Source: Chitinophagales bacterium
GTDB taxonomy: Bacteria > Bacteroidota > Bacteroidia > Chitinophagales > LD1
NCBI GenBank assembly: GCA_025057415.1
Contig: JANWXI010000002.1
Span: 3,497 to 67,496, forward strand
Direction: 5' to 3'
Length of the DNA stretch: 64,000 bases
Below, piece after piece: positions 25,498 to 59,806 of the stretch (the first letter of the stretch is position 1; the number at the start of each line of letters is the position of its first letter). The notes under the pieces are model-generated. The model was not told where the DNA came from. It saw only the letters and a program-made list of their open reading frames with translations, and did not search any database. The translations under genes were made by a program, and so were the position numbers.

Positions 25498-25513
25498 ACA
25501 GTTTCACATGAAA

Positions 25514-32785: not shown

Positions 32786-32806
32786 GCGTTACAATTTAAT
32801 TTAATT

Positions 32807-41557: not shown

Positions 41558-43099
41558 ATGAACATTTGCCTGGTGCGGCCGCCCAAGTTGATGAAGTTGC
41601 TGGGCGGCTCTATGAATCCGGTGCCTCCGCTGGGGTTGGCTTTTGTGGCAGCATCGCTGCGCGAGGCGGGGCATCGGGTAACGGTGATTGATGCCATAGG
41701 GGAGGCGCCGTTGCAGGTAGTTCCGTATCGTTTGCAGGGCACATACACTAACGGATTGAGTTACGATGAGATATACCGGCGCATACCTTCAAATACCGAT
41801 GCCGTGGGGTTTAGTATGATGTTTACCGAGAACTGGCTGAGCGACCGCGACCTGATACATTACCTTGGCAGCCGTATGCCGGGGGTAACTTTTTTTGCAG
41901 GAGGCGAGCACATCAGCGCGTATCCGGAGATGTGGTTGAAACAGGCAGAGCACTTGCATGTTTGTGTAGTGGGTGAAGGGGAAGAAACGGCTGTGGAACT
42001 TGCCCGGGCGCTTGAGAGTGGCACTCCTTTAGAGGATGTACACGGGATAGTTTTTAAAAACCATCGAGGTACAATCATCACAAACCTCCGCCGGGGGCGT
42101 ATTCGGAAAATAGAGGATATACCGTTGCCGGCGTGGGAGCTTTTTCCGATAGAAACGTACAACGATTTGAAGTTGCAATGGGGTGTTTACCGGGGCAAAT
42201 CGTTGCCGATACTCGCTACGCGCGGCTGCCCCTATACCTGTACTTTTTGCAGCAGTCCGCAGATGTGGACTACGAAATACTCCATGCGCAGCCCGATGCA
42301 CGTGGCGGATGAAATGGAGATGTATTACCGGAAATACGGTATTACGAATTTTGATTTTTACGACCTTACGGCAATCATCCGCAAGGAGTGGATTATTGAT
42401 TTGTCGAAAGAGATTATCCGCCGCGGTTTGCAAATAACCTGGCAGATACCGGGCGGTACCCGGTCAGAAGCCATCAACCGCGAAGTAGCGCATTGGTTAT
42501 ACCGCTCCGGATGCAGAAACATTACCTACGCCCCCGAAAGCGGCAGCCCGGAAACCCTACATTACATCCGTAAGAAAATCAGTATTTCGAAAATGCTCAC
42601 CTCTATCGGGCACAGTAACCGCGAGGGGATGAACATTAAGTTGAATATTATGATAGGTTTTCCGGAAGAGCGACACAAACACTTATGGCAAACGATATGG
42701 TTTCTGATGCGCGCGGCAGCATACGGGGCGCATGATGCGGTGCCTTCTATTTTTTCGCCATATCCCGGCAGCGCACTTTTTGAGCAGTTGGTACGCGAGG
42801 GGCAGATACGCCCCGATACAGACGAGTACTACGAGGGTATATTGGATACCAATGATTATACGGGTACAAAATTTTACAACAAGCATTTAAGTAAAGGATG
42901 GTTAAGGTTTTATTTTTATATGTATTTGGTTGCTTTTTTTGGCACGCAATATCTTGTTCGTCCCTGGAGGTTAATCCGCACATTACGCAATTTAGTGCTC
43001 AGAAAACAGGAATCGAGAGGTGAAGCTGCCTTACTGGAAATGCTGGGGAGGAGGAAATTTGTGTTAAGAACCGAAATGACAGAGGTTGCACATGCATGA
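41558..43099 (+). CDS. B12-binding-domain radical SAM enzyme, family A paralog 2 (513 aa)
   Basis: MNICLVRPPKLMK...PPLGLAFVAASL...IDAIGEAP...VVGEGEET. ATRGCPYTCTFCSSPQMW. QIPGGTRSEAI. Confidence 0.85.
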   Translation: MNICLVRPPKLMKLLGGSMNPVPPLGLAFVAASLREAGHRVTVIDAIGEAPLQVVPYRLQGTYTNGLSYDEIYRRIPSNTDAVGFSMMFTENWLSDRDLIHYLGSRMPGVTFFAGGEHISAYPEMWLKQAEHLHVCVVGEGEETAVELARALESGTPLEDVHGIVFKNHRGTIITNLRRGRIRKIEDIPLPAWELFPIETYNDLKLQWGVYRGKSLPILATRGCPYTCTFCSSPQMWTTKYSMRSPMHVADEMEMYYRKYGITNFDFYDLTAIIRKEWIIDLSKEIIRRGLQITWQIPGGTRSEAINREVAHWLYRSGCRNITYAPESGSPETLHYIRKKISISKMLTSIGHSNREGMNIKLNIMIGFPEERHKHLWQTIWFLMRAAAYGAHDAVPSIFSPYPGSALFEQLVREGQIRPDTDEYYEGILDTNDYTGTKFYNKHLSKGWLRFYFYMYLVAFFGTQYLVRPWRLIRTLRNLVLRKQESRGEAALLEMLGRRKFVLRTEMTEVAHA

Positions 43100-44303
43100 T
43101 ATTGCCATACGGCTTACCGATGTATCAAAAACATACCGGGGTAATACCGGGCTTATCCGTGCAGTGCATAACGTTACAGCCACCATCAAACGCGGAGAGG
43201 CACTCGGGATTGTAGGCCGCAACGGGTGTGGCAAGAGTACATTGATGAAGATGATTGGCGGCATCATTAAGCCCAGCTCCGGCAAAATAGAAGTACAAGG
43301 GAATATTCTGCCCATTGTGGAGGTGGGGGCGGCTTTTCATCCGGAGTTGACCGGAGAGGAAAATATTTTATTAAACGGGTATTTGCTCGGCTGGAGCAAA
43401 AGCGAAATAAAACGCATATTGCCACAGGTGCTGGAGTTTGGTGAGTTAGGGAAGTTTATTCATGAGCCGGTAAAAAATTACTCGCAGGGGATGTTTTTGC
43501 GCCTGGCATTTTCACTGATGGCTCATTTGCCTTACGATATTGTTTTATTAGATGAAGTACTTTCGGTAGGAGACAGTAAGTTTCGCCATAAGTGTTATGA
43601 AAAAATACAAGAATTTAAACAGGACGGTAAGACCCTGCTGATCGTATCGCACATTTACGATGAAATCGCATCGTTGTGCGATTTATGTATGGTTTTACAC
43701 AACGGAACATGTGTTGCCCTGGGCACCCCTGCCGATACATTTAATATTTATCAGGAGTCGCTCATAGATGATGGCATGCAATCAATTATTGGTTTGGAAG
43801 ATCGTTTTGAATATATTCATGTAGGATATATGCGCATACGTGATGTGCATATTTATAATCTTAACGATAAAAATGCTCCGATAGTTTTTTCAGAACCGAT
43901 TGTCATTGAAGTAGAATGGGAAAAGCTGACACCTGAAGGGGGTATATATTTTGACATTCAATGTATGGATATCTTCAACAGACCTGTGTGGCATACCTCA
44001 AACTATTTTGGAAAAAAAATTGATCTTGATCCCGCACCAAACACTATGCAAACCGGCATTTTTACTGTCAGGTGTGTAATTCCTGCCTGTTTCATGAATT
44101 TTGGTAGTTATTACATAATAATTCAAGCATCACAATATATAGATAAGGAGAATAACTATACTATATTAAAGACAACACACCCCATACAATTATTTATTTC
44201 AAACAACTATCAGGAGGAACAAGAAAATAAGTGGACACATAGTCAATCTCATATTCGTACAAATATTTTTAATTGGGAAGAAACTGAAATATTATTAACT
44301 TAG
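43086..44303 (+). CDS. Wzt/TagH-like polysaccharide-export ABC transporter ATP-binding protein with C-terminal extension
   Basis: Walker A GRNGCGKST, signature-like YSQGMFLRLAF and Walker B IVLLDEVLSVGD, followed by a ~160-aa extra C-terminal domain. Overlaps the upstream rSAM gene by 14 nt. Confidence 0.8.
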   Translation: MHMHDIAIRLTDVSKTYRGNTGLIRAVHNVTATIKRGEALGIVGRNGCGKSTLMKMIGGIIKPSSGKIEVQGNILPIVEVGAAFHPELTGEENILLNGYLLGWSKSEIKRILPQVLEFGELGKFIHEPVKNYSQGMFLRLAFSLMAHLPYDIVLLDEVLSVGDSKFRHKCYEKIQEFKQDGKTLLIVSHIYDEIASLCDLCMVLHNGTCVALGTPADTFNIYQESLIDDGMQSIIGLEDRFEYIHVGYMRIRDVHIYNLNDKNAPIVFSEPIVIEVEWEKLTPEGGIYFDIQCMDIFNRPVWHTSNYFGKKIDLDPAPNTMQTGIFTVRCVIPACFMNFGSYYIIIQASQYIDKENNYTILKTTHPIQLFISNNYQEEQENKWTHSQSHIRTNIFNWEETEILLT

Positions 44304-44326
44304 CATTACTTTATTAGGTATTTGAG

Positions 44327-45862
44327 ATGAAAGTTGTGCTTATCAGACCGCCCAAATTCATGATAGAAGGTAGTCAGCCAATACCTATTATTCCCCCGTT
44401 GGGCATAGCGTTAATTGCCGGATCTCTTAAAGCGGCAGGGCATCAAGTAAATGTAATTGATGCTATTGCCGAAGCCCCTAACCAGTTTAATAAAAACGAG
44501 CCAATACCCGTTTACAGCAATCGCGTAAAAAAAGGTTATCGGCTGATCAGCATGGGCTTAAGCTTTGAGGAAATTGCATCCCGCATACCTCTCGATGTTG
44601 ATGTGATTGGCTTAAGTTGCATGTTTAGTATTAACTGGCCGTTAGATCGCGCTTTGATAAAATACCTCGCTGGAAAATTTCCGCTTGCCAAAATGATTGC
44701 CGGCGGGGAGAGTATCACCGGCATGGCGGAAACCTGTTTGCAACAAGCGCCCCAACTCATTGCGTGTGTTATGGGAGAAGGAGAAGAAACGTCCATTGAA
44801 TTATTAAGTGCTTTTGAAAAAAATCTGCCACTTAGCAATGTTCCGGGTATCATGTGTCGTTTGCCGGATGGCACTATCTATAAAACTAAACCCCGGCAAC
44901 GCATCCGTAAGTTAGATGAGGTGCCTTTTCCCGATTGGAGCACTATGCCGATCTACAACTATCAGCGCCATGCAGTGTATCCTGGCGAAACACCCCGCAT
45001 TACACTGGGTATTATGGCCACGCGGGGGTGCCCATATGAATGTACTTTCTGTACCAGCCCCGATATGTGGGGAACCCGCTATTTTATGCGCTCACCCGAC
45101 AATGTGATAGCCGAAATAGAATATATGAAAAATATTTATGGGGCTACTAATTTTGAATTTTTTGACCTCACAGCCATTATTCAAAAGCGTTGGATTATAG
45201 AATTTGCCCAAAAATTGGTGGAAAAGAAACTAAACATCACCTGGAAAATACCAGCCGGTACGCGCAGTGAAGCTATTGATGAAGAAGTGGCTTATTGGCT
45301 TAAAAAATCAGGATGTTTTTTTATTACATACGCTCCGGAAAGCGGCTCGCAACGTTTGCTAAATATCATCAAGAAAAAAGTTTCATTGGATAACATTTTA
45401 CAGTCTATAAAATACTCCAAAAAGCAGGGTATGATAGTCTATATTAATATGATTATGGGGCTACCTGACGAAACACACCTTGATGTATGGAAAACATTTT
45501 TATTTTTATTTAAGTGCAAACTAAACGGAGTTGATGAAATGCCCTTAGCTGTTTTCAGACCATACCCAGGCAGTTCGCTTTTTGATAGGCTTTTAAAAGA
45601 GGGTAAAATTGAATCATCCAGCGATGATTACGTAATTGACTCTCTTTTTATTATTGAAACGATTACTGAACATCAGTATTATAATGATAATATTTCGGCT
45701 TTTTGGTATAAAATATATATGTGGCTTGCCTATTTCTTTTTCTATGGTTTGGATTACATAAAAAATCCGACAAGCATATTGCGAACCATTCGAAATATAA
45801 GCGAAAAGAATTATCAAAATGAATTAGAACGTAAACTAGCCTACAGATATCAATCGCCTTAG
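44327..45862 (+). CDS. B12-binding-domain radical SAM enzyme, family A paralog 3 (511 aa)
   Basis: MKVVLIRPPKFM...PPLGIALIAGSL...IDAIAEAP...VMGEGEET. ATRGCPYECTFCTSPDMWG. KIPAGTRSEAI. Confidence 0.85.
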   Translation: MKVVLIRPPKFMIEGSQPIPIIPPLGIALIAGSLKAAGHQVNVIDAIAEAPNQFNKNEPIPVYSNRVKKGYRLISMGLSFEEIASRIPLDVDVIGLSCMFSINWPLDRALIKYLAGKFPLAKMIAGGESITGMAETCLQQAPQLIACVMGEGEETSIELLSAFEKNLPLSNVPGIMCRLPDGTIYKTKPRQRIRKLDEVPFPDWSTMPIYNYQRHAVYPGETPRITLGIMATRGCPYECTFCTSPDMWGTRYFMRSPDNVIAEIEYMKNIYGATNFEFFDLTAIIQKRWIIEFAQKLVEKKLNITWKIPAGTRSEAIDEEVAYWLKKSGCFFITYAPESGSQRLLNIIKKKVSLDNILQSIKYSKKQGMIVYINMIMGLPDETHLDVWKTFLFLFKCKLNGVDEMPLAVFRPYPGSSLFDRLLKEGKIESSSDDYVIDSLFIIETITEHQYYNDNISAFWYKIYMWLAYFFFYGLDYIKNPTSILRTIRNISEKNYQNELERKLAYRYQSP

Positions 45863-45868
45863 CCAAAT

Positions 45869-46729
45869 ATGTTTTTTAAAAATAAAGCCCTTCAACTAAA
45901 ATTTAAACAATTAGGTTACTGTGTTTTTCCTCTAGTAAAGGACCGAGTAGTGCTCAAAAATTTGCACAATTTATTGAATGATAAATTGTCCGAGCATTTA
46001 AAGTGCCCTGATAAATTTAAAGGTACCGGCTGGATAGATGATGCGGAGTTAAGAATCCAAATCAGCAAACAAATTTCCGATATATTGAGCGGACAAATTG
46101 AAGTGCATTTTCAATTATTTCAGGTGTTGGGTTATAATTTTTTACTAAAAGAATCGGATATTGACTCGCGCGTTCCTCCGCATCAGGATTGGACTTATGT
46201 AGATGAAAGTAAATATTATTCTTTCAATCTTTGGTTAGCGTTGGAAGATATACTGCCCGAGGACGGGGCTATTCAAGTATTGCCGTTTTCGCATCGGATT
46301 TTTTCCGGCTATTTGCGACCATCACCTGCATATCCCATACCGTTTGCAGCTTATCGCGATAAACTACTCCCCTTTATGAAGACCATACCGATGAGGGCAG
46401 GTGACTGTATATGCTTTAGCAATGCTGTGGTACATGCATCATTACCTAACACCGGAAGAGGACTCCGTCCGGTAGTAGTATGCACAATATACCCGAAAGA
46501 AGCCACTTTATTACATCATTATGTACATAATATTTCTACTCCCAACGAGGTGGTAGAATATCATATTTCTTCTGAGCAATTCCTTAAAATCAATCGCGGG
46601 CAACCGCCCCAATGTTACATCAATAAGCATTTTCGCCACACCCGTTATCCTGACATTACGTACCAGAAGTTTGTATTAATTTGGTATGCACAACTTTATA
46701 TGTATAAATTAAACAAAGTTTTTGTGTAA
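45869..46729 (+). CDS. PhyH-family Fe(II)/2OG dioxygenase
   Basis: HxD in RVPPHQDWTYVDE and distal His in NAVVHASLPN. Confidence 0.75.
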   Translation: MFFKNKALQLKFKQLGYCVFPLVKDRVVLKNLHNLLNDKLSEHLKCPDKFKGTGWIDDAELRIQISKQISDILSGQIEVHFQLFQVLGYNFLLKESDIDSRVPPHQDWTYVDESKYYSFNLWLALEDILPEDGAIQVLPFSHRIFSGYLRPSPAYPIPFAAYRDKLLPFMKTIPMRAGDCICFSNAVVHASLPNTGRGLRPVVVCTIYPKEATLLHHYVHNISTPNEVVEYHISSEQFLKINRGQPPQCYINKHFRHTRYPDITYQKFVLIWYAQLYMYKLNKVFV

Positions 46730-46736
46730 TATCTGA

Positions 46737-48440
46737 ATGATTATACCCTTTACATTTCGTCTATTTACCAAGTGGTTCATTTTCGGCATCATCATCAATA
46801 TTGTTATATGTAATCTTTTACCACCGGTATATGGCGACTACGATTATCTCGGGGCCGCCATTATGAGCGGACAATTGTCTGATGGTTTAGTATTAAAAAC
46901 GTATCACCTGGGATTGTTTCCTGCATCCTGGATGATCGGTATGCTGCATTATTTGGTCCCAACTTGGCCATGGACAGGTATTATTATTCTACTACAATGG
47001 ACTGTGATTTTGGCAAGTATTGCTTGCATGTTGCCGATAGACGAAACCATTGATAAGTACAATACAACTTTGCGAATTCTGCTGTATGTCATTTCATGGT
47101 TAATACTGGCATTAGGATGTTTAATAATTCCATTTCAAGAGTTTTCTGTGACTGGTGTAGGAGTGGTGAGCAGTGCGGTAGGCGCATGGGGCATATACCT
47201 CCATATCACCCGTACTAGTGGGGTAAAAAATATCTGTACGATATTGTTCTTTACACTGCTATGCTTTGGCGGTTATATGTGGCGATGGGAAGCAGGGCTG
47301 GGCGGTACAATACTTTTTGCGATATATGTCTTTTGGTTCGATGATCTTAAAAATGTACTGAAAGGGCTTTTAATACCGGGAATTATTGCTGTAATATTAT
47401 TTATCGGCATACTGGTCCAGTTGCGCGATCATTATTTTTTTAAGGTAATAGAACCGATGATATTTTATGTTACTGATGCAAGAACACCACCGCCCATTGA
47501 TAGTACCTCTTACAGAAAAATGCTTGCGCAAAGTATCATACGGGCCTCGTTTATATCGGATACTACCATCGTTAACTATAATCATGTTTATGAATTATAT
47601 GTGCGCAAGAAGATGCAAGAAATTAATCAATTAAAAGAGCCATTTAAAACAATTCGACAATCGCTAATAAATATGTCCGGTACCGTAAAAAAATGTAGCG
47701 GCATTAGCTTCGCTTACCTGTATGTTTTTGCTGCAGGTATGATGATTTTAGCGATGTCTGGGAGAAAAAGCGAAGTAATCCGGGTTGTACTGTTCAATCT
47801 GACTGTATGGCTAGTGATTATTCTTACTGCGTATGTGATGAAAATGGAGCCATGGCACTATACACCTATTTTGCAAACTACATTATTGTTTAATCTGGTT
47901 AACGTAATTTTCCCAATAAGCAACAGCGGTAATATTGCGATAATACTAGTACCGGCATTCTTATCTGTAATTAACTTCGGTAATTTCTATCATATGTGGA
48001 AAAAAGAACAACAGGAAATATTAACCAAAAAAGTCGCCAGGAGCAAATTTATTAGACCATCTGTTCCGTATGTATTTATAGATGTAGATACGAAAGATAT
48101 TCTGGATGATAGAGTGTTTACTCCTATGAAGTTACCTGCCAACATATATTTTTATGATTTAGGTCAACTGACCCATTTGACTCCTTTTAAAAATAAACTT
48201 TCGAAAGCTTGTAATTGCAATTTTTATCACGCAGATGAATTTTTCCGGTTTGTGGACAGTAAATCGGACTCAATCCTATATGTTTCTACTGCCCAAAGAG
48301 TACAACTTATCAATTTACTTACGACTGAGTTTTATCAGATGCGCTTGCTTTTCACTGCCGTTGACTCTGCTAATGTTACAGTTGGCACGCAGGAAATACC
48401 TGTAATTTATGCATTCAAAGTCAAGGTGATTTCTTCATAA
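46737..48440 (+). CDS. Polytopic membrane protein with soluble C-terminal domain (unknown family; paralog of 27277..28932)
   Basis: 567 aa with the same helix/loop/C-terminal-domain layout as the 551-aa protein. Blocks in the central loop (SFISDTTIVNY vs SFFFTDTAQY) and at the C-terminus align by eye. Confidence 0.5.
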   Translation: MIIPFTFRLFTKWFIFGIIINIVICNLLPPVYGDYDYLGAAIMSGQLSDGLVLKTYHLGLFPASWMIGMLHYLVPTWPWTGIIILLQWTVILASIACMLPIDETIDKYNTTLRILLYVISWLILALGCLIIPFQEFSVTGVGVVSSAVGAWGIYLHITRTSGVKNICTILFFTLLCFGGYMWRWEAGLGGTILFAIYVFWFDDLKNVLKGLLIPGIIAVILFIGILVQLRDHYFFKVIEPMIFYVTDARTPPPIDSTSYRKMLAQSIIRASFISDTTIVNYNHVYELYVRKKMQEINQLKEPFKTIRQSLINMSGTVKKCSGISFAYLYVFAAGMMILAMSGRKSEVIRVVLFNLTVWLVIILTAYVMKMEPWHYTPILQTTLLFNLVNVIFPISNSGNIAIILVPAFLSVINFGNFYHMWKKEQQEILTKKVARSKFIRPSVPYVFIDVDTKDILDDRVFTPMKLPANIYFYDLGQLTHLTPFKNKLSKACNCNFYHADEFFRFVDSKSDSILYVSTAQRVQLINLLTTEFYQMRLLFTAVDSANVTVGTQEIPVIYAFKVKVISS

Positions 48441-49278
48441 CCTCCTCGCGATGCTTCAAATATGCATCTTCTGAGAAACTCAAGGGTAAATGGGGAAGAT
48501 ACTTTACAAATATAGAGTCATCGGGCGGCACAGATAGGCGAAATTCCCCTGAGAGAAAGATATTTCGCTTGTGTTCGTATAGCGCCGCCTGTTTACCCGG
48601 AGGATTATCTTTAAAATAGTAAACTGTCACCAACGGAGCACTTTTGTCAATTATTTTTGATACTACAGCTACGCGCAACTTTGTTGACAGGTTTCTCTCT
48701 GTACAATGTAATATTCGGTTGTCAAACAAAAGAGCTTCACCGGATTTCATAGGAAAACACACGCTGTGTTTACGTATGGTTTCTTCATAACCTGCAAACG
48801 GACAAGGCATCGTAAAGGTGTAATAATCTACCATGTTTCGAGTAGCTAGGTCTAAACACAGCATTCCGGTATGTTCATCAATGTCACATAATGGTATCCA
48901 TAACGCCATGTTGTTCAGGTGTCTGTACGTCATGGTCGGGTCGATATGGAAATTAAGATAACTGTCATTTCCCGGTTTTTTTATAATAAATATGGAGCAA
49001 ACAATTTCGAAGTTCTCCAAAGCATTTGACAATGGTTCACCTATTACTGATAGTATCTCCTGGTTGATTTTTTTAATATGATGGGCTGGTTCGGTAGCAA
49101 TTGTATCATACAGTAGGGGCAAATTGTCCGGATTAAAATTTGTATAGAATATTCTCAGAAGTTTACCTATTTGTTCCTCGTTGAGTAAGGGGATAATAGT
49201 TGCGCCCGAAGAGAAATATTGATGATTGTTACCGATGTTTTTTATGCGTATGCCGGATTGTAAATAAATTAATGACAC
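48421..49278 (-). CDS. PhyH-like Fe(II)/2OG dioxygenase
   Basis: HxD in LNFHIDPTMTY and distal His in DNRILHCTERN. Confidence 0.6.
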   Translation of the reverse strand: MSLIYLQSGIRIKNIGNNHQYFSSGATIIPLLNEEQIGKLLRIFYTNFNPDNLPLLYDTIATEPAHHIKKINQEILSVIGEPLSNALENFEIVCSIFIIKKPGNDSYLNFHIDPTMTYRHLNNMALWIPLCDIDEHTGMLCLDLATRNMVDYYTFTMPCPFAGYEETIRKHSVCFPMKSGEALLFDNRILHCTERNLSTKLRVAVVSKIIDKSAPLVTVYYFKDNPPGKQAALYEHKRNIFLSGEFRLSVPPDDSIFVKYLPHLPLSFSEDAYLKHREEVMKKSP

Positions 49279-49316
49279 AGTATGGTTTGAGTAATTAGGA
49301 TAATTATATTTGGTAT

Positions 49317-50864
49317 GTGAATATTGTTCTCATACGCCCCCCAAAGTTAATGATTCGCGGCACACTTACTATGAAGCCGGTCGCGCCGCTGGGGCTTGCT
49401 TACATAGCTGCTGCAGCCGAGTCGGCAGGGCACAATGTTCGCGTAATTGATGCTATTGCCAATAATATTTGTGAATTCCATCCTACTGAATTAGGCAATG
49501 ATATTATCATTCAGGGAATGCGCCCCGAAGTTGTTGCAGAGTTAGTTCCTTGCGGCTCCAAAGTTATCGGTTTGAGTTGCATGTTCTCTAACAACTGGCT
49601 ATTGGATAGGCGGTTGATCAAAGTTTTGCGTAGTCGGTTTCCTGAAGCAGTGTTAATAGCAGGTGGAGAAAGCATTTCGGGGATGCCGGAATACGCACTG
49701 AAAGACAGTGAGTTAGACATTTGCGTGGTGGGTGAAGGAGAAGAAACATTTAAGGAAGTTTTATCGGCTATAGAAAATCAAATACCACTGGTTACAGTCA
49801 AAGGGATTGTATTCAAAAAAGATGGGAAAATCGTATTAAATCCGCGCAGGGAGCGTATTCGTCAATTAAATGATATACCCTACCCAGCGTGGCATTTTTT
49901 TCCTGTCAATGCTTATTTTGATAATCAAATTACATTGACACCTACCGAACGAAAAAGTTTGCCTACTTTAGCCACCCGGGGGTGTCCCTATACATGCACT
50001 TTCTGCAGCAGTCCTAACATGTGGACTACCAAATATAGCTTACGTAGTCCCGATAACATTCTTCAGGAAATGATTTATATGTATGAAAAATACGGTGTAA
50101 CTAATTTTGAATTGTTTGACCTCACGGCCATTATAAACCGACAATGGATACTGGAATTTTGCCGCTTACTGCAAAATTACCCGGTACATTTTACATGGCA
50201 AATGCCCGCAGGCACACGAAGTGAGGCCCTGTCTGAGGAAGTGATAAGGGAAATGGCTAAAGCAGGATGCACCAATATTACCTTCGCTCCTGAAAGCGGA
50301 AGTAAAAAAGTGTTACAACTTATTCAGAAAAAAGCCGACCCGGACAAGATGCTACCTGCAATGAAGTTGGCTTCACAACTTGGAATGTACGTTTACGTTA
50401 ACTCGATTATAGGTCTTCCAGGAGAAACCCACCGCGATATTTGGAAAAGTATGCTTTATCTTGCAAAAACGGCATTTGCCGGAGCACAAGATACGGGTAT
50501 GGCTGTTTTTATGCCATACCCGGGATCTGAGTTATTCAAACAATTTGAACAATATGGTCAATTATCGCTCTCCGACTCGTTTTTTTATGATATACTTTAC
50601 ACTGATTCTATCACAAAAAGTCAATTTTACAATAATAACATCCCTTCATTTATTTATCGTATTTATAACATTCTTTTATTAACTGTTTTTTATATAGTTT
50701 CTTACAGTAGTCATCCGTCAAGAATATACAAAAGTTTACGGAATGTAATCAAAAGACGGTATGTTACTCGTGGTGAAAGAGCTATCGGCTATCTAATGGA
50801 ACAATACTTTTCATTAAAAAAATCACCTGTCCATTCATTACACCAACCAGTATCTCACGTTTGA
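49317..50864 (+). CDS. B12-binding-domain radical SAM enzyme, family A paralog 4 (515 aa)
   Basis: GTG start. NIVLIRPPKLM...APLGLAYIAAAA...IDAIANN...VVGEGEET. ATRGCPYTCTFCSSPNMW. QMPAGTRSEAL. Confidence 0.85.
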   Translation: MNIVLIRPPKLMIRGTLTMKPVAPLGLAYIAAAAESAGHNVRVIDAIANNICEFHPTELGNDIIIQGMRPEVVAELVPCGSKVIGLSCMFSNNWLLDRRLIKVLRSRFPEAVLIAGGESISGMPEYALKDSELDICVVGEGEETFKEVLSAIENQIPLVTVKGIVFKKDGKIVLNPRRERIRQLNDIPYPAWHFFPVNAYFDNQITLTPTERKSLPTLATRGCPYTCTFCSSPNMWTTKYSLRSPDNILQEMIYMYEKYGVTNFELFDLTAIINRQWILEFCRLLQNYPVHFTWQMPAGTRSEALSEEVIREMAKAGCTNITFAPESGSKKVLQLIQKKADPDKMLPAMKLASQLGMYVYVNSIIGLPGETHRDIWKSMLYLAKTAFAGAQDTGMAVFMPYPGSELFKQFEQYGQLSLSDSFFYDILYTDSITKSQFYNNNIPSFIYRIYNILLLTVFYIVSYSSHPSRIYKSLRNVIKRRYVTRGERAIGYLMEQYFSLKKSPVHSLHQPVSHV

Positions 50865-51247
50865 ATATGCTTGAAAAATACCTTTGGATAATATACATAT
50901 CAATATCTTTATTAATCGGTGAATTTCACCCGTTTTCACTGTACAAGATGTATAACGCTTTTCCTGACAATGCCACAATCATTGTAGTAAAAAATGCCGA
51001 ATCGCATTTTATTCCCATAAGGGAACATTTACGTTGTCGTTCGGCTGATCTTACGCACAAATACTATGCGTATCGAAAACATTACGGTCAATCGGACTCA
51101 GCAGCTTTAGAATATTTATGCAAACAGCTACACACATATCGTATCTCTGCAATGCAAAGTGATTTACGATTGTGTCTCTTGAATCTTTATAAAATTCCAA
51201 ATCAGATTACTACAGAAACATTTTGCCGGCATGAAGCATGTCGCTGA
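50861..51247 (+). CDS. Hypothetical small protein with one N-terminal hydrophobic helix
   Basis: 128-aa ORF that overlaps the upstream rSAM gene by 4 nt and the downstream membrane-protein gene by 17 nt. No family recognised. Confidence 0.45.
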   Translation: MNMLEKYLWIIYISISLLIGEFHPFSLYKMYNAFPDNATIIVVKNAESHFIPIREHLRCRSADLTHKYYAYRKHYGQSDSAALEYLCKQLHTYRISAMQSDLRLCLLNLYKIPNQITTETFCRHEACR

Positions 51248-52094
51248 TTTATCAGATAGTGAAATAACGCTTTTTTGGTTCACTATTCGTTTATCATGGA
51301 GTGTAATACTTTGTGCTACATTAACCATATTTCTATTTCAGAGTAATCAGAATTTTTACCCCGAAGGTATTTTCCGATTTGTACCGATGAGTTTTTCGCT
51401 GCCGGTTTGGATGAAGGTATTAGCATCTATAATTATAAACGGTTGCGGGGTTGTGTATGTGTTGAACCGCAACATGAAATTGGTTGTGACTGTCTTAGCC
51501 GTATTGTCCTTTTTTGTTGTTTCATATCATGAGGCCAACGGCATTTATGCCCGCGCCACCATTCTGACAGCAATATGTATCGGACAAGCCATAGCTTTTT
51601 ATCAGAATGAGCGTAACTACCCGAATTCTGTAGCTTATAAAGCTATTAATTACTCAGTACAAATGATTGCTGCCGGCTACGTTTTGGCGGGCATTTCCAA
51701 GATTTATGAGTCAGGTTTAGGTTGGTTTTTAGATGTTGAGGGCTTTTGCCTGCAAATAATGAAAAATTTTTACTTTTTATATGCTGACACAGGGAATTCG
51801 GAATACCTGAATTACGCACAATCTATATATAACATTTTCTCCAATTATCCGTGGGTACCTGCTGCGATGTTGTTTGCTGCACTGCTGCTGGAGTTATTTT
51901 GTTTTGTGGTGGTTTATATGCCAAAACTTACCGTATGGTGGGGCATCGGTTTGCTGCTGATGCACCTGGGGATAGCTGTTCTGATGGGGATCGGTATTAG
52001 TGTGATCGCATTTCCGATGGTAATATTTTTTATTAACCCCGTGTATTATATCATTAGAGGGATTAAGAAACTTTCGGAGTGTAATGTCGTATAA
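51231..52094 (+). CDS. Polytopic membrane protein (unknown; possibly HTTM/DoxX-like)
   Basis: 287 aa with about 7 hydrophobic helices. The family assignment is only an impression. Confidence 0.45.
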   Translation: MKHVADLSDSEITLFWFTIRLSWSVILCATLTIFLFQSNQNFYPEGIFRFVPMSFSLPVWMKVLASIIINGCGVVYVLNRNMKLVVTVLAVLSFFVVSYHEANGIYARATILTAICIGQAIAFYQNERNYPNSVAYKAINYSVQMIAAGYVLAGISKIYESGLGWFLDVEGFCLQIMKNFYFLYADTGNSEYLNYAQSIYNIFSNYPWVPAAMLFAALLLELFCFVVVYMPKLTVWWGIGLLLMHLGIAVLMGIGISVIAFPMVIFFINPVYYIIRGIKKLSECNVV

Positions 52095-53019
52095 GTTCAA
52101 GCATTTCTTTTTCTGAGTAATCAAAGTATTTGTATGGCACTATCTCTTTTCTCCATAAAGTTTCATCCGGTTTGGAAATAAAATCATACGTGTAATAAAA
52201 CTCTTCCGTCACATAATATTTTTCGATTTGGTCAAGAGGCAGTTCCGGGTTACGGAAATAATACACCAACTGGTAGTTCTTACGTAGTACCGTCATGGTA
52301 ATGGCGTGACGGATTTCTGTACCGAGGTTGGGAGCGCTGGCATGGATACAAGCCGGGTCAAAAACAATCACATCACCCTTTTTGACGGTAACGGGGTGAG
52401 CATGCTTATAAAGTATAGGTATATAATTTTTGAACTGCCAGGGAACACCTAAGCTGCGTTGGGTATTACCCCACAGATGGCTGCCACTTACAAAAGATAC
52501 AACACCGTTTTCCATAGTTACATCGCAAAAGGGTATCCATACAAACAGGCAATAGTCGCTCTCTTCATCTATTACAGTAGAGTCCTGATGTATCAATAAG
52601 TCGCTGTTGGGATGAGGGGGTTTTACCTGAAAGGCGCCCCCGGTGTGTGTATCGGTTTTTTGCATATCAAACAAACGGGGCAGAATTACCGGGGCTAATT
52701 CATTGATTACCTGCTGTACTTTTTTCCGTATTTCAGGATTAAAAAGCCGTCCGCTGTTGAGCAAATGCTTATCTAATTCAAATCCGTCCAACTTTGAAAT
52801 TTCATCAAATGTTTGCATAAATCTGTCTATTTCATCCTGGCGGATTACCTGCTCAATTTTCACCCAACCGTACTGCAAGTATTTTGCGTGATGGTCGTCA
52901 TTGATAAAAAAACTATCCATGCGGATACGGTAATATTTATTCTCCTGCAAGGTTGGCAGACGGAGAGATGGTTTAAATATTTTTGTAATATAATTGATCA
53001 TTTTTGTAATTAACTCCAA
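52063..53019 (-). CDS. PhyH-family Fe(II)/2OG dioxygenase
   Basis: HxD in DLLIHQDSTVIDE and distal His in DPACIHASAPN. Confidence 0.75.
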   Translation of the reverse strand: MELITKMINYITKIFKPSLRLPTLQENKYYRIRMDSFFINDDHHAKYLQYGWVKIEQVIRQDEIDRFMQTFDEISKLDGFELDKHLLNSGRLFNPEIRKKVQQVINELAPVILPRLFDMQKTDTHTGGAFQVKPPHPNSDLLIHQDSTVIDEESDYCLFVWIPFCDVTMENGVVSFVSGSHLWGNTQRSLGVPWQFKNYIPILYKHAHPVTVKKGDVIVFDPACIHASAPNLGTEIRHAITMTVLRKNYQLVYYFRNPELPLDQIEKYYVTEEFYYTYDFISKPDETLWRKEIVPYKYFDYSEKEMLELIRHYTPKVS

Positions 53020-53837
53020 AAATATATACTTTTTTCATCTGTTGACAATGCTGCGAAACCACCCAATGTCACCCGCTCAGTGTCATGTGCTGCCGGTGGA
53101 ATAACTTTATGCCAATAGGTGCCTCCTTTAAACATCAATAAGCTGCCTGCCGGAGTTTCCACTACTTCATGTTTCATGGCTTCTTCAGCTATAATATTGC
53201 CGTTCGGGTCTTTTATGGTAAACTGACCTTCTTTAATGCAATTATCATAAATGCTGTCAGCCACCCATAGCTCACCCCCCTTGGACGGATTCCGCAAAGT
53301 GAAGTACCAGCTCAACATCGTATCTGGTAATATGTGTTGCCCTATCAAATTTCCCACTTCTTCGTGTATATAGGGCAACAGTTTACCGTCCTGATGCAAG
53401 TATAACCCTCCCTTGCCGGGTAACACTACCCGAAAACTATATGGCAAGAAACCTTGTAGAGGTCTTAGCTCAAAGGGTTTAAAATACATATAAATTTTAT
53501 TGACAATCCAACGGGTTACATCCGTGTTGCCCGCTTCATCTGCAGCATTCAGGAACGGTATTATGGTGTTAAAATAACGTTGTACTTCCTCCTTGGGTTT
53601 TGACCGATAAACAGAACCAAAAAGATAAGGAACAGAGTATCCATTGCCGTAATTGAGGTCAGCTATAAAATTTTCAGATGTGCGGTTCAGTATATTGAAT
53701 AAAAAATCAATATCATCAACCGATAATATATCCTCAACCACATAACCCGTAACTTCACATTGGATAATATGCCTTACATTGAATGGTGCATTACCATTCC
53801 GATGCGTGAATCGTTCAAAACGCAACATGTGATACAA
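53010..53837 (-). CDS. 2OG-Fe(II) oxygenase (prolyl-4-hydroxylase-like)
   Basis: HxD in GLYLHQDGK, distal His in GGTYWHKVIP and a downstream RVTLGGF (2OG-binding Arg context). Confidence 0.6.
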   Translation of the reverse strand: MYHMLRFERFTHRNGNAPFNVRHIIQCEVTGYVVEDILSVDDIDFLFNILNRTSENFIADLNYGNGYSVPYLFGSVYRSKPKEEVQRYFNTIIPFLNAADEAGNTDVTRWIVNKIYMYFKPFELRPLQGFLPYSFRVVLPGKGGLYLHQDGKLLPYIHEEVGNLIGQHILPDTMLSWYFTLRNPSKGGELWVADSIYDNCIKEGQFTIKDPNGNIIAEEAMKHEVVETPAGSLLMFKGGTYWHKVIPPAAHDTERVTLGGFAALSTDEKSIYFWS

Positions 53838-55500
53838 ATGTTGGTATATTACTGTTTAAGTGCCGTATTATTTCTTCATCGGTAATATCCAAAACTCTTT
53901 TAGGGACTTTGCGAATAACGTTTCCGAGTGGCTTACTCCCCGCCGCCAGGTCATCTAATCTGCCGAAGAGGTCATCCTCTGTTAATACATACTCATATAT
54001 GTGACTGTTTTCATGGTGATAATATACAGTTGGCGCTTCTTTGTGGCAAATGGCTGCCACAACAGCTACCCGTTCCTGATGACTGTGGTTCACACCCGAT
54101 CCGTGAAACAAGGCAGGGTGATACAGGACTACATCTCCGGGTTCGGCAGTGATTTCAATTACCCGATCACGTAATGGTTCAAAGGGGACAAAGCGAATAG
54201 GACAAGTACCTGAGCGATAGTTATGAAAAACTAAATGGGAACGCGGTATAACCGCGAGTGTGCCATTATGAGGCGAAACAGCTTGCAAAGGTATCCAGCA
54301 ATGAATGACCCCATATAACTCTTCCGGCACTATACTCCAGTCCTGATGCAAATTGAACAGACCGTCCGCTCCTGGCGTCTTGGCCGCATAATGACCTATG
54401 AGGGGTCTTATATTAACAAAATAGTTCTGTAAAAGGGGCTTGATGCAACTAAAAATCATTTCGCTGTGGCGCTTGTTAGTTTGAACATTTCGCTCATAAT
54501 GATGCGTTACAAACATGCCAGGTCCGGTAGTAAAATGACGATGGTAATTTTCTTTTAACTGTTCTATGATACTTGTGTCAAGCGCTCCACGAATATGTAC
54601 GTAACCCTCCAATTGAAATGTACGATGTGGCTCATCACTGCACAGAAGCCGATGAGTAAAACGATTTGAACGCCATGCCGCTTTTACTTCTGATACTTCG
54701 GGTGACATTTCCTCATGTGCGAATGTTTCTACGAGTTTCGATTCCTGTGGCAAGTGTGTATGGTATGTTCTGCTTAACATATCGCGAAAAGCCGCGGGTG
54801 TAAGTTGATATGCTCTGATTTCGTTGTCAAATCGTATGTAGTGATATATGGGGGATTTCTGATGTTTTAATATCAAGCGGAGCGCTGTAAAATCTACATT
54901 GGCCTGGTTAAGTTTTAAACAGTGAAATATTGCCTGGTGATAAGCCAGACACTGACCCGCCTCCATCGGCAGGTCGGTTCGCATTTCTTTTGGAATTTGC
55001 TCAAAAGGAATTCTGATTGTTTCCGAATTAGAAGAACGTATGCTCTCAATACCCTGATGTGTTCCTTCCAATAAAGCCATACAACCGTTCCCTTTGCATG
55101 TATCATTAAGCGGAATAAAACAGGTGATAAACGCATGTTCTTTCTCGTTGGTGTAACTCCATTCCTGGCGATAGGCATATTCCTCTAAAGTGTCTGCCTG
55201 ATGGATTAAATGCGCACTGTCAATTATTTCAAATTTTTCAAAATGTAACTCAAGGGCTGCACGAATAATTTCGATTGTTTCGTTTTCCAGATTTATTGGT
55301 CGGAATGCATCCGAAGCTACAGCATTATCGTTCAATACGTTAAAGTTGTGTGTTCTAATACTCACCTCTTTATGAAATGAGCTGAAAACTTCGCGTAATT
55401 TGGTCAACTGCAGGTCGTTCAACAGAGGTAGTAACACATATCCTTTTCCCAGAAATTCACATTCGGTCTTTTTATTTTTGAAAGGAGTTAACATAATCAA
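53815..55500 (-). CDS. Tandem di-domain PhyH-like protein (N-terminal domain with degenerate metal triad)
   Basis: 561 aa made of two PhyH-like halves. The C-terminal half has NLHQDWSIVPEE and LFHGSGVN. At the equivalent position the N-terminal half has YRQEWSYTNEKE (H->R, D->E), with IFHCLKLN retained. Confidence 0.65.
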   Translation of the reverse strand: MIMLTPFKNKKTECEFLGKGYVLLPLLNDLQLTKLREVFSSFHKEVSIRTHNFNVLNDNAVASDAFRPINLENETIEIIRAALELHFEKFEIIDSAHLIHQADTLEEYAYRQEWSYTNEKEHAFITCFIPLNDTCKGNGCMALLEGTHQGIESIRSSNSETIRIPFEQIPKEMRTDLPMEAGQCLAYHQAIFHCLKLNQANVDFTALRLILKHQKSPIYHYIRFDNEIRAYQLTPAAFRDMLSRTYHTHLPQESKLVETFAHEEMSPEVSEVKAAWRSNRFTHRLLCSDEPHRTFQLEGYVHIRGALDTSIIEQLKENYHRHFTTGPGMFVTHHYERNVQTNKRHSEMIFSCIKPLLQNYFVNIRPLIGHYAAKTPGADGLFNLHQDWSIVPEELYGVIHCWIPLQAVSPHNGTLAVIPRSHLVFHNYRSGTCPIRFVPFEPLRDRVIEITAEPGDVVLYHPALFHGSGVNHSHQERVAVVAAICHKEAPTVYYHHENSHIYEYVLTEDDLFGRLDDLAAGSKPLGNVIRKVPKRVLDITDEEIIRHLNSNIPTFVSHVAF

Positions 55501-57172: not shown

Positions 57173-57267
57173 ATATTCATATTTTTATCAATGTAATTTT
57201 ACGATAAAATTATCGCTACCGCTAATATAGCAATTTGATTTTTATTTTTCTATTTGCATTAGATGAT

Positions 57268-58287
57268 ATGCGTCATTCCATTAATATGCACGTATGTTTG
57301 GCCGGTTACGGTTACTGGGGGAAAAACCTCCTCCGCAACCTCATTGAAACCCTTAGCGCTGACCGTATCAGTGTTGCAGAAATTATGCCCGAAAAGCGCG
57401 CTCAACTTAAACGACAATACCCTAATATTACCTGTTACGACTCTTTTGAAGATGCATTAGCTCAAAACCACAGCGCTGCCTTTGTAATCGCAACCGAAAC
57501 ACGCTACCATTATGACCATGCCCGCAAAGCGCTCCTCGCCGGCAAACACGTACTGGTAGAAAAACCCCTTACTACTTCCGTGGCGCAGGCAAAAGAGCTG
57601 TGCCGCATTGCAAAAGAGCGTGGGCTTATCTTAATGGTTGACCACATTTTCCGTTATCATCCGGTAGTGTGGAAAATGAAGGAATACTTCCGGGAAGATT
57701 ATCTCGGCCCCATTCATTATATGGATGCCACACGGGTAAACCTGGGTATTTATCAGGAAGATGTCAACGTACTTTGGGATCTTGCCTGTCACGACCTGAG
57801 TATTATCCAGTTTTTAGTTAATGAAAAACCTACATCGGTGAGAGCCATCGGCCGCATCAACCCTGAGCACGGCTCTGAAGACGTTGCTTACCTGTTTCTT
57901 TATTATCCATCCGGCATGCTGGTACAAATAAATTCTTCCTGGGCAAGTCCGGTAAAAATCCGCAAGATGATAGTGGGCGGTGAAAAACGCATGATGATTT
58001 ATGACGATATAGAGCCCACCAACAAACTCACCATTTATGAGTACGAGCCAAACATCCAACGCGATGAAAACAAAACCAAACTTACGGACTATCGCCTCGG
58101 AAATATCATTATCCCGAAAATTGAGCAGGGCGAAGCTCTGCGAAATGTAATCGTTGAGTTTTTGGAGTGTATTCAATGTGCGAAACAACCCGCTTCAGAC
58201 GGTTACAACGCCCTGGAAATCATCAATATTTTAGAAAAAGCACAACAATCTTTATCATTGGACGGAGCTATTGTCCCTTTACCTTGA
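57268..58287 (+). CDS. Gfo/Idh/MocA-family NAD(P)-dependent sugar oxidoreductase
   Basis: Rossmann N-terminus HVCLAGYGYWGKNLLRNL, plus the HVLVEKPL and FRYHP blocks typical of the family. Start uncertain: ATG 57268 or 57286 rather than the listed TTG 57235. Confidence 0.8.
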   Translation: MRHSINMHVCLAGYGYWGKNLLRNLIETLSADRISVAEIMPEKRAQLKRQYPNITCYDSFEDALAQNHSAAFVIATETRYHYDHARKALLAGKHVLVEKPLTTSVAQAKELCRIAKERGLILMVDHIFRYHPVVWKMKEYFREDYLGPIHYMDATRVNLGIYQEDVNVLWDLACHDLSIIQFLVNEKPTSVRAIGRINPEHGSEDVAYLFLYYPSGMLVQINSSWASPVKIRKMIVGGEKRMMIYDDIEPTNKLTIYEYEPNIQRDENKTKLTDYRLGNIIIPKIEQGEALRNVIVEFLECIQCAKQPASDGYNALEIINILEKAQQSLSLDGAIVPLP

Positions 58288-58979
58288 ACTACTCGTTTAT
58301 TATCTTTTGTTACAATGAAGAACACAACCTTATCCGTGTATATGAGCGGTTGAAAGCATTTTGCTCTCGTAGTCATTCAGAGCACGAAATCATTATTGTG
58401 GATGACGGTAGCACGGATGGTACTCCGGACATATGTAAAAAGTTAAAAGAAGAAAACCCGGGTATAATAGTGATTACTCATGCCGTTAATGCTGGTATAG
58501 GATTGGCATTGCGGAGTGGTTACGAAGCTGCTACACGCGAATACGTATGCGCCATTCCGGGCGATGGACAATTCGATATTGAGGAGTTGAATGCCGTACG
58601 TCCCTTTACAAAAGAAACATTCTACTCCTTCTACCGCCCGCAAACTAATTACAACTCATATCGCAAACTACTCACCTGGTTGAATCGTCTTTTTAATCAA
58701 CATATTCTTGGGCTTTACCTTCGCGATGTGAACTGGGTAAAAGTTTACCGCCGCGAGCATTTGATGATAACAGCGCCTGTGTTAAGAAGTTCTCTGATTG
58801 AAAGTGAAATATGTGCCAAGCTAAATCGAATGGGCATCATGCCCATAGAAATTCCATCGGTATATCATCCCCGCCAATCCGGCAAAGCAAAAGGGGGCAG
58901 CTGGAATACGCTTCGCAAAGCCCTTGCCGAAACGCTCAAATTATGGTGGTTAGTAGTTACATTTAAACCCCGAAAATGA
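58284..58979 (+). CDS. Family 2 glycosyltransferase (polyprenyl-phosphate sugar synthase-like)
   Basis: YSFIIFCYNEEHNL...IIIVDDGSTDGT...IPGDGQFD. The start is proposed at TTG 58284, which overlaps the upstream TGA (TTGA). The listed upstream 39 codons overlap the oxidoreductase gene. Confidence 0.75.
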   Translation: MNYSFIIFCYNEEHNLIRVYERLKAFCSRSHSEHEIIIVDDGSTDGTPDICKKLKEENPGIIVITHAVNAGIGLALRSGYEAATREYVCAIPGDGQFDIEELNAVRPFTKETFYSFYRPQTNYNSYRKLLTWLNRLFNQHILGLYLRDVNWVKVYRREHLMITAPVLRSSLIESEICAKLNRMGIMPIEIPSVYHPRQSGKAKGGSWNTLRKALAETLKLWWLVVTFKPRK

Positions 58980-59803: not shown

Positions 59804-59806
59804 CGC

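Follow-up and report, generated by a model that had tools for sequence, protein, structure and literature searches.

Two gene blocks in a 64,000-nucleotide stretch of DNA from a Chitinophagales bacterium (contig JANWXI010000002.1; hereafter the window) each bring together a radical S-adenosylmethionine (SAM) enzyme of one family (rSAM-A), an Fe(II)/2-oxoglutarate (2OG) oxygenase and a polytopic membrane protein, which we call M. We found that the two membrane proteins, M1 and M2, are diverged homologs of one rare family, that their structural models show the fold of GT-C glycosyltransferases, and that the combination of the three components recurs in other genomes. The best reading of the models is that M acts as a transferase at the periplasmic face of the membrane rather than as a presenter or translocase. 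On balance, the evidence leaves about an even chance that the blocks are tailor-and-transfer cassettes, in which rSAM-A and the 2OG oxygenase would tailor a lipid-linked sugar and M would transfer it. A preliminary description of this DNA, made from the sequence alone, had proposed a recurring functional unit whose two enzymes modify a substrate that the membrane protein presents or translocates. The recurring unit is borne out by the homology of M1 and M2 and by the co-occurrence seen elsewhere, whereas the part given to M in it is not.

The genes of both blocks all lie where that description had placed them (Table 1). The blocks at 44327-48440 and 23956-28932 indeed have opposite gene orders relative to transcription and, given the spacing of -1 to 16 bp between the genes within them, each looks like an operon. 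As had been noticed, the radical SAM enzymes can be aligned end to end (46% identity between A1 and A3 over 507 residues, E 4e-158) and the oxygenase slot is filled by different 2OG families, AspH in the M1 block and PhyH in the M2 block.

By BLASTP, a marginal similarity of M1 to M2 covers their 234 C-terminal residues (E 0.016, 21% identity). When profiles of the two subfamilies (4 sequences for M1, 5 for M2) were aligned by hhalign, the similarity was significant, with a probability of 98.4% and an E-value of 4.8e-15 over 498 columns end to end, and iterated hidden Markov model searches begun from M1 and, independently, from M2 reached an identical set of 28 sequences. M1 and M2 are diverged homologs of one family. 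The short blocks that had been matched by eye turned out to be nearly invariant columns of this family (the D of F..D and the R of R.q.I): the block SFFFTDTAQY/SFISDTTIVNY holds D260 of M1 and D275 of M2, and the block RIQLIS.../RVQLIN... holds R512 and R521. Because proteins of both the M1 type and the M2 type occur in two other loci (L004 and L006), the duplication that separates them must be old.

Neither protein matches Pfam or NCBIfam, and word-indexed searches with M1, M2 and a family profile of 25 sequences hardly went beyond the cluster to which the query belongs. The family was recovered via loci fetched through alignment of rSAM-A and by an exhaustive HMMER search, in which phmmer run against 1.84 billion cluster representatives gave 56 relatives at E <=1e-3; the full-length ones have about 500-590 residues and are collinear with M2. 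M is thus a rare, previously unrecognised family, and at the sequence level its membership in PMT, PMT_2 or GT87 is not supported.

AlphaFold models built with a 44-sequence alignment reached a pLDDT of 90.8 and a pTM of 0.91 for M2, and a pLDDT of 82.2 and a pTM of 0.87 for M1. In Foldseek comparisons with the PDB, the M2 model matched PglB, STT3 and ArnT with a probability of 0.99-1.0, and AftA, Pmt4 and human OST-A with a probability of 0.89-0.95. For M1, ArnT came first (E 9e-5, probability 1.0), then Pmt4, ALG9, ALG12, EmbA/B, AftA and PglB. With both models, matches with a probability of at least 0.5 were GT-C enzymes exclusively, at TM-scores of 0.37-0.48, the remaining ones (MFS, LeuT and similar) reaching at most a probability of 0.3 and TM-scores of about 0.1, and no Wzy, WaaL, Wzx/MOP or MurJ structure was among the top 50 matches of either model. 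Compared with known folds, M1 and M2 as modelled therefore show the fold of GT-C enzymes and not that of an O-antigen ligase or polymerase. We also count in favour of a GT-C fold that DUF6056 was matched by 1 of 44 M members (4.8e-5).

Helices of the AlphaFold models, hydropathy and counts of K+R over the 44 members together give M a topology of 11 transmembrane (TM) helices, within the 7-13 of GT-C enzymes, and place its N-terminus in the cytoplasm. The five loops after TM2, TM4, TM6, TM9 and TM11 (model numbering) are short and positively charged, and helix 302-319 of M2, which has low hydropathy and is amphipathic, does not count as TM. On the side opposite to the positive loops lie the acidic EL1, R183/E185, E239/D275, K369 and the C-terminal domain, so that this alpha/beta domain is predicted to be periplasmic. 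The conserved residues of M2 are D34/D36, R183, E185, E239, D275, K369, D474, C492, C494 and R521 and, given this topology, all conserved polar positions of M would face the periplasm. The first loop of M2, between TM1 (7-27) and TM2 (79-98), has a net negative charge and contains short helices at 36-44 and 63-73, and the corresponding helices of M1 are at 30-38 and 59-68. An acidic motif (e.g. GDYDY, LEDNE, VDDY or YYED) directly follows TM1 in 25/25 aligned members. In GT-C enzymes, the catalytic Asp sits at a position just after TM1 (PMC11127046). The database gene call for M2 is a protein of 525 amino acids which begins at residue 43 and omits TM1 and the conserved acidic motif (window 46737-46862); the ATG at 46737 is supported as the start by homolog alignments and by the model, with a pLDDT of about 93 there.

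The window encodes four family-A radical SAM paralogs (A1 to A4), which share 40-54% identity over their full length in an all-against-all BLASTP. All four match PF02310 and PF04055 above the cutoffs and have an invariant CxxxCxxC motif (C235/C239/C242), features by which they are predicted to be class B (cobalamin-dependent) radical SAM enzymes. No subfamily (HpnJ, BchE, PhpK, GenK-like) could be assigned to the radical SAM enzymes, their NCBIfam matches having 20-170 bits for cutoffs of 250-775; for A3, the best one is the Sden_1168 P-methyltransferase family (169 bits, cutoff 575). Two more specific readings of these enzymes were rejected, in both cases on NCBIfam scores far under the cutoffs: phosphonate chemistry (PhpK/Sden_1168), for which the annotated genes include no PEP mutase, and hopanoid synthesis (HpnI/J/K/L), for which they include no cyclase. 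The PhyH oxygenase of the M2 block keeps H105-x-D107...H189 and R200 across 44 homologs, and H119-x-G121 and H167 are conserved in the AspH-like hydroxylase of the M1 block. The radical SAM and oxygenase proteins are most likely cytoplasmic, since they have neither signal peptides nor TM helices.

Table 1. Positions in the window of the two M blocks and of related features of the locus.
Feature	Position	Strand	Remarks
rSAM-A3, 511 aa	44327-45862	+	Pfam B12-binding 55 bits, Radical_SAM 71 bits
PhyH-family Fe(II)/2OG oxygenase, 286 aa	45869-46729	+	Pfam PhyH 59 bits
M2, polytopic, 567 aa	46737-48440	+	No Pfam/NCBIfam match; GT-C-fold model
M1, polytopic, 551 aa	27277-28932	-	No Pfam/NCBIfam match; paralog of M2, different old subfamily
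LPG_synthase_TM/flippase-like membrane protein, 342 aa	26249-27277	-	Pfam PF03706 67.8 bits
AspH/LpxO/OlsC-like Fe(II)/2OG hydroxylase, 244 aa	25514-26248	-	Pfam Asp_Arg_Hydrox 128 bits
rSAM-A1, 513 aa	23956-25497	-	Pfam B12-binding and Radical_SAM; 46% identity to A3, 54% to A2
rSAM-A2, 513 aa	41558-43099	+	No adjacent M; Pfam B12-binding and Radical_SAM
rSAM-A4, 515 aa	49317-50864	+	Next genes encode a 128-aa protein and a membrane protein of 287 aa, not M
PhyH oxygenase, convergent with M2	48421-49278	-	Pfam PhyH 37 bits; same place and orientation in L076
Small radical SAM without B12 domain, 331 aa	29825-30820	-	Pfam Radical_SAM 92.6 bits
UbiA-family prenyl/phosphoribosyl transferase, 275 aa	31958-32785	-	Candidate polyprenyl-phosphate sugar synthase; Pfam UbiA 45.7 bits
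Mem463, polytopic, 463 aa	32807-34198	-	Beside UbiA; about 10 TM helices; no Pfam/NCBIfam match
Wzt/TagH-like polysaccharide-export ABC ATPase, 405 aa	43086-44303	+	Pfam ABC_tran; NCBIfam TagH and galactan Wzt/RfbE below cutoffs
GT2, 270 aa	58167-58979	+	Candidate polyprenyl-phosphate sugar synthase; Glycos_transf_2 84.8 bits; weak ArnC and PpgS similarity

The co-occurrence of M, rSAM-A and a 2OG oxygenase in other genomes, which the preliminary description had expected, was found, though with a fluid gene order. Relatives of rSAM-A number 399 among species-representative genomes, and from such genomes 75 loci around rSAM-A homologs were fetched, a sample which is biased toward rSAM-A. M homologs occur in 17 of these 75 loci, all of them from Bacteroidota. 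Of the 23 full-length M genes in the same loci, 19 are at most two genes away from rSAM-A and 15 from a 2OG oxygenase, and 16 immediately adjoin some B12 radical SAM gene. Four further contigs (L076, L078, L079 and L080) were retrieved through M homologs alone, with no reference to radical SAM enzymes. L076 carries an rSAM-A fragment, an ABC ATPase, rSAM-A, PhyH, M, a PhyH on the minus strand and rSAM-A, in the same order as window 41558-50864. L078 has LPG_synthase_TM, AspH, an rSAM-A 71% identical to A1, M and PhyH; in L079, rSAM-A, M and PhyH overlap by 4 bp at each junction through their stop and start codons; and L080 reads M, rSAM, LPG_synthase_TM, rSAM, AspH (minus strand), M, three PhyH, WelO5 and an ABC+Wzt_C+PhyH gene. 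The cassette thus recurs in other genomes. When positions 2115-6246 of L076 were compared with the block at 44327-48440, the A3 ortholog was 83% identical, the ABC ATPase 51% and M 36%, a contrast which means either that M evolves much faster than its radical SAM partner or that it was replaced by another member of the family.

A longer gene order (Mem463, UbiA, small radical SAM, M, LPG_synthase_TM and rSAM-A) is also shared by the window with L004/L006, at an identity of about 30%. In these distant Chitinophagales metagenome-assembled genomes (MAGs), the part of it comprising Mem463, UbiA, in some cases SGNH, small radical SAM and M lies at L004 2664-8030 and L006 2857-8033, and its counterpart is at 29825-34198 on the minus strand of the window. 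By analogy with systems that combine PPPRS with a GT-C enzyme, which a UbiA gene with a polytopic neighbour resembles, Mem463 may be another hidden GT-C enzyme. More widely, homologs of the small radical SAM co-occur with rSAM-A in 22 loci from several phyla, and homologs of LPG_synthase_TM adjoin rSAM-A in at least 10 related loci.

Other kinds of membrane protein accompany rSAM-A elsewhere. In 8 Vicinamibacterales loci, the rSAM-A homolog is directly followed by a canonical PMT/PMT_2 GT-C gene, which would stand in for M and so speaks for the GT-C reading of M, and one PMT/PMT_2 gene occurs elsewhere, without adjoining it, in the Omnitrophica locus L054. Ten orphan polytopic proteins beside rSAM-A outside Bacteroidota have no Pfam match and may belong to other, as yet unrecognised GT-C-like families. 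The idea that they are distant homologs of M was tried and dropped, as hmmsearch with --max found nothing below E 0.1. Polytopic proteins of 450-700 residues that follow rSAM-A and resemble neither M nor any Pfam family were seen in Elusimicrobia, Bryobacterales, Omnitrophota and Hyphomicrobiales, and include those at L017 11518-13452, L048 12032-13768, L055 11526-13139, L067 4433-6280 and L074 9188-11059. NAD-dependent epimerase/dehydratase genes are found in 25 rSAM-A loci, and the loci of other phyla also contain DegT aminotransferase, NDP-hexose C-methyltransferase, GT2, SGNH and carbamoyltransferase genes.

In the window, both blocks belong to one tightly packed run of genes of about 44 kb (from about 18.9 kb to 62.6 kb), whose gaps mostly range from small overlaps to 88 bp, with a single larger gap of 270 bp at a divergent promoter and a 121-bp overlap at 58167-58287 that probably reflects an over-extended open reading frame (ORF) start. 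It contains seven radical SAM genes with a B12-binding domain and the small one, three AspH-like genes, six PhyH genes (one of them double-domain), one WelO5-like and one Cupin_8 gene, as well as four membrane-anchored SGNH/GDSL proteins, the UbiA-family protein, LPG_synthase_TM, a multihaem cytochrome c and the ABC ATPase. A GFO/IDH/MocA oxidoreductase, GT2, a CN hydrolase, a WbuX-type N-acetyl-sugar amidotransferase (215.8 bits, above the NCBIfam cutoff of 203.2) and a NodU/TobZ-type carbamoyltransferase complete this set, which shows the glycan context of the locus. In L004, L006, L012 and L080, the ortholog of the ABC ATPase joins ABC_tran, Wzt_C and PhyH domains in one fusion protein, and L080 also has an ABC2_membrane gene. 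Together with the Wzt/TagH-like ATPase of the window, the fusions and this gene indicate that the locus makes a surface glycan via the ABC-transporter route. The fusion genes lie at L004 15009-16928, L006 14900-16924, L012 15148-17088 and L080 13286-15262, their Wzt_C match being weak and below the Pfam cutoff, and the PhyH domain is absent from the ATPase of the window itself (43086-44303). The UbiA-family protein has a weak NCBIfam match to decaprenyl-phosphate phosphoribosyltransferase (DPPRS; 46.5 bits, cutoff 234). No flippase of the GtrA, SMR or MATE families was found in the locus; LPG_synthase_TM, which adjoins M1 and reaches 39.9 bits for the TIGR00374 flippase-like domain, just below the cutoff of 43.2, could serve as one.

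Taking these observations together, we propose the following mechanism for the tailor-and-transfer cassette. A polyprenyl-phosphate sugar, the likely donor of M, would be made in the cytoplasm, and on the cytoplasmic side the cobalamin-dependent rSAM-A would carry out a radical C-methylation or rearrangement of the lipid-linked sugar, and the Fe/2OG oxygenase would hydroxylate it. The flippase-like protein would then carry the modified lipid-linked sugar across the membrane, and M would transfer the sugar from polyprenyl phosphate to an acceptor at the periplasmic face. Where cassettes are duplicated and differ in their oxygenase, the decorations would differ too. In this scheme, synthase, flippase-like protein, transferase and tailoring enzymes would all come from the block that runs from Mem463 to rSAM-A. 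We infer that the radical SAM and 2OG enzymes act on the donor of M rather than on the main polymer, and the exact chemistry given here is likewise what the enzyme families suggest. A stricter form of the proposal, which we put forward tentatively and would not favour as it stands, has the radical SAM and Fe/2OG enzymes acting directly on polyprenyl-phosphate monosaccharides, giving C-methylated or extra-hydroxylated donors that exist only on the carrier, each used by a dedicated fast-evolving GT-C enzyme. The same tentative form would imply a modular diversification of surface glycans by radical chemistry, spread across many phyla through rSAM-A and its orphan polytopic partners.

Several observations weigh against the tailor-and-transfer proposal. 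On the side of M, no sequence or profile tie to any known GT-C family emerged from Pfam, NCBIfam, a PDB-sequence profile search or hhalign: the M profile reached ArnT among PDB sequences at E 0.62, and hhalign gave a probability of 0.2% against the PMT_2 proteins that adjoin rSAM-A. The GT-C TM-scores of 0.37-0.44, with E-values of 1e-4 to 1e-2, likewise indicate a fold-level and not a close likeness. As to the linkage, A2 and A4 have no M partner in the window, and L002, the closest A3 relative in the genome collection (71% identical), has A3 and PhyH without M. Outside Bacteroidota, large polytopic proteins adjoin rSAM-A in 15 of 46 loci for about 13% expected, which is an enrichment of only about 2.5-fold. 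Finally, the substrates of the oxygenases could be others than the donor of M, as the fusion of PhyH to Wzt-type ATPases suggests that some of them act on the exported polymer, and the AspH-like enzymes are most like the lipid hydroxylases OlsC (114 bits) and LpxO (67 bits), both far under the NCBIfam cutoffs.

The main rival follows from the last points. The radical SAM and 2OG enzymes might tailor the undecaprenyl-diphosphate polymer or its terminal cap before export by Wzm/Wzt, M adding a side branch independently as a GT-C enzyme, which we hold possible but somewhat doubtful; that the genes are neighbours only because strain-variable decoration genes are inherited together is an equally hesitant part of this explanation. 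It would account for the PhyH domain at the exporter in the fusions, for the A3-PhyH pair kept without M in L002, for the many PhyH, AspH and radical SAM genes of the window that adjoin no M and for the fluid order of the cassette. It does not sit well with the stop/start overlaps among rSAM-A, M and PhyH in L079, with the pairing of rSAM-A with GT-C or other polytopic proteins across phyla above the local background, or with the conserved order from Mem463 to rSAM-A, which resembles a donor pathway. Less likely than this are readings in which the cassette acts on a lipid or a protein or in which M is a scaffold. The idea that the preliminary description had put forward, M as a scaffold, flippase or translocase presenting a membrane-bound substrate to the radical SAM enzyme and the oxygenase, we regard as highly improbable. 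The tight operon linkage would fit it, as would the absence of a sequence match of M to any glycosyltransferase family. However, its conserved polar residues and large extramembrane domains are predicted to be periplasmic, its cytoplasmic loops have only about 5-10 residues to offer to enzymes with neither signal peptide nor TM helix, a separate flippase-like gene is present, and neither transporters nor flippases, Wzy or WaaL match the models at high Foldseek probability. A common lipid-linked sugar or glycan is more likely to link M with the two enzymes than physical presentation of a substrate.

A lipid-directed pathway, in which M would act like ArnT on lipid A or another lipid, the AspH-like enzymes would hydroxylate acyl chains, the radical SAM enzymes would methylate or cross-link them and LPG_synthase_TM would flip the lipid, is in our view unlikely. 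It draws on ArnT as the best structural match of M1, on the likeness of the AspH-like proteins to OlsC and LpxO, on the MprF-type flippase-like domain and the four membrane-anchored SGNH/GDSL proteins of the locus, and on weak NCBIfam matches of the radical SAM enzymes to HpnJ, HpnR and a ladderane lipid enzyme. Those scores are all far below the cutoffs, however, and the locus holds polysaccharide-export and sugar-nucleotide enzymes (the Wzt-like ATPase, WbuX, the carbamoyltransferase and epimerases) and no lipid-synthesis core in the window, ketoacyl-synthase and acyl-carrier genes being found only downstream of the L079 cassette. We think it very unlikely, too, that M is a PMT-like O-glycosyltransferase of a secreted protein or of a peptide resembling ribosomally synthesised and post-translationally modified peptides (RiPPs), which the radical SAM and 2OG enzymes would modify before its glycosylation. 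PMT enzymes are among the structural matches, PMT_2 and TPR proteins occur in related loci, and the AspH, JmjC/Cupin_8 and PhyH families and B12 radical SAM enzymes include peptide modifiers (in part PMC2938197). Against this, the surrounding genes point strongly to sugars, genes for proteases, leader recognition or cyclases are absent, and clustering of the related loci gave no conserved family of small ORFs. A precursor peptide as such was rejected, the tightly packed cluster leaving no intergenic room apart from the 270-bp gap, which holds only short unsupported ORFs.

The tailor-and-transfer proposal has a close precedent in the pentofuranosylation of the Citrobacter youngae O-antigen, which uses three components, PPPRS, a MATE flippase and the GT-C enzyme GT136 (Kelly et al. 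2024, PMC11127046). In GT136, 11 TM helices are combined with a helical domain that follows TM1 and a periplasmic domain at the C-terminus, and an acidic residue beside TM1 is essential; before the undecaprenyl-phosphate sugar of this system is flipped, an auxiliary enzyme in the cytoplasm alters it (PMC11127046). M resembles GT136 in its predicted 11 TM helices, its small helical periplasmic domain after TM1, its extra C-terminal periplasmic domain, the acidic residue adjacent to TM1 and the lack of sequence similarity to older GT families, and the locus resembles the C. youngae system in its association with an ABC-transporter-route glycan and in the UbiA-family gene adjoining a polytopic protein. 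The two differ in the auxiliary enzymes, which are cobalamin radical SAM and Fe/2OG enzymes here and an epimerase there, in the candidate flippase, LPG_synthase_TM-like here and MATE there, and in the C-terminal domain, which is alpha/beta with a CxC motif in M and a beta-rich CBM in GT136.

The paradigm in which a lipid-linked sugar is made, flipped and transferred by a GT-C enzyme for periplasmic decoration also underlies the Arn, Gtr and mycobacterial arabinan systems. In the Arn pathway, which adds aminoarabinose to lipid A, ArnC is a GT2 enzyme, ArnD a deformylase, ArnE/F the flippase and ArnT the GT-C enzyme. ArnT is the best structural match of M1 and a top match of M2, and the logic we propose (synthesis by GT2, tailoring on the lipid, flipping and transfer by GT-C) is that of Arn; unlike in Arn, M has no profile similarity to ArnT/PMT_2, and the tailoring enzymes are radical and oxidative instead of a deformylase. 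The Gtr systems (GtrA/GtrB/GtrC), which glucosylate the O-antigens of Salmonella and Shigella, are serotype-converting cassettes that combine a variable polytopic transferase with more conserved donor genes. The variable M (36%) beside a conserved A3 ortholog (83%) in L076 recalls this arrangement, whereas Gtr systems have no donor tailoring, radical SAM or 2OG enzymes, and neither GtrA-type flippases nor a TM-anchored GtrB were identified here.

Two further systems share enzyme families with the locus. The hopanoid side-chain genes encode HpnI (GT2), HpnJ (B12 radical SAM), HpnK and HpnL (LPG_synthase_TM), which act on a lipid-linked sugar. The window has the same trio of GT2, B12 radical SAM and LPG_synthase_TM, and HpnJ is among the best NCBIfam matches of several of its radical SAM proteins; however, the scores are 70-133 bits for a cutoff of 578, there is no squalene-hopene cyclase or HpnH equivalog in the window, and the hopanoid system has no GT-C enzyme. 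In aminoglycoside tailoring, the B12 radical SAM C-methyltransferases GenK and GenD1, the PhyH-type dioxygenase KanJ and the carbamoyltransferase TobZ act on sugars. The class B radical SAM, PhyH and NodU/TobZ-type carbamoyltransferase families are all found in the window, whereas the aminoglycoside enzymes act on soluble pseudo-oligosaccharides, outside a membrane-linked and exporter-coupled GT-C pathway. A search for this type of cluster in full-text literature found no description of it, which is weak evidence of absence as the coverage of that literature is incomplete.

Periplasmic decoration of glycans by GT-C enzymes being already known, tailoring by radical SAM enzymes and oxygenases is the new element here, and radical SAM tailoring of surface glycans has been little explored. 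If the proposal is true, M would be a new GT-C family missed by current domain libraries and a candidate for a new CAZy family, as GT136 was in 2024, and a widespread uncharacterised cobalamin radical SAM clade with its 399 relatives would be tied to glycan biosynthesis. It would also give a handle on the product of a tailoring locus that is very dense in enzymes, with eight radical SAM genes, seven of them with B12 domains, and twelve genes for 2OG-type oxygenases in about 44 kb. The Wzt-PhyH fusions of its relatives suggest that oxidative editing is coupled to polysaccharide export, of which no description was found in the literature searched. Altogether, the cluster points to an unusual and undescribed sugar chemistry, and the rSAM-A clade and its orphan membrane partners span many phyla.

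Some other genes of the locus deserve mention. The WelO5-like protein (53010-53837, minus strand), which matches the Pfam family "carrier-protein-independent halogenase", has H148-Q-D150 in place of H-x-G, on which grounds a halogenase was rejected and a hydroxylase is predicted. It is neighboured by a protein of 561 amino acids (53815-55500, minus strand) with two tandem PhyH domains, which has double-domain homologs in L002, L033 and L050. The 128-aa and 287-aa proteins after A4 (50861-52094, plus strand), the second with 6-8 TM helices, match no family and recur as a pair at L009 19942-21223; they could be an alternative membrane partner or a Wzm-like permease. Between radical SAM genes, a multihaem c-type cytochrome (21321-22481, minus strand) whose N-terminus forms an anchor or signal, and which recurs at L007 2661-3824, might supply electrons or serve periplasmic redox chemistry. 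The genes from GFO/IDH/MocA to the NodU/TobZ-type carbamoyltransferase (57235-62630) form a block that is conserved, being also found in L002, L019 and L036. Its CN hydrolase adjoins the PP-loop amidotransferase, an arrangement that recalls glutamine-dependent NAD synthetase, and the two may supply ammonia for an acetamidino sugar.

Outside the locus, an ORF of 515 amino acids without family match (10226-11773, plus strand) overlaps a DAHP synthase/chorismate mutase gene (9410-10540, minus strand) by about 315 bp; its translation probably begins further downstream, unless the ORF is spurious. The nearest relatives of the genes of the window are in Chitinophagales MAGs, and the window also carries type IX secretion genes, with PorP/SprF and a Por_Secre_tail protein at 5299-9456.

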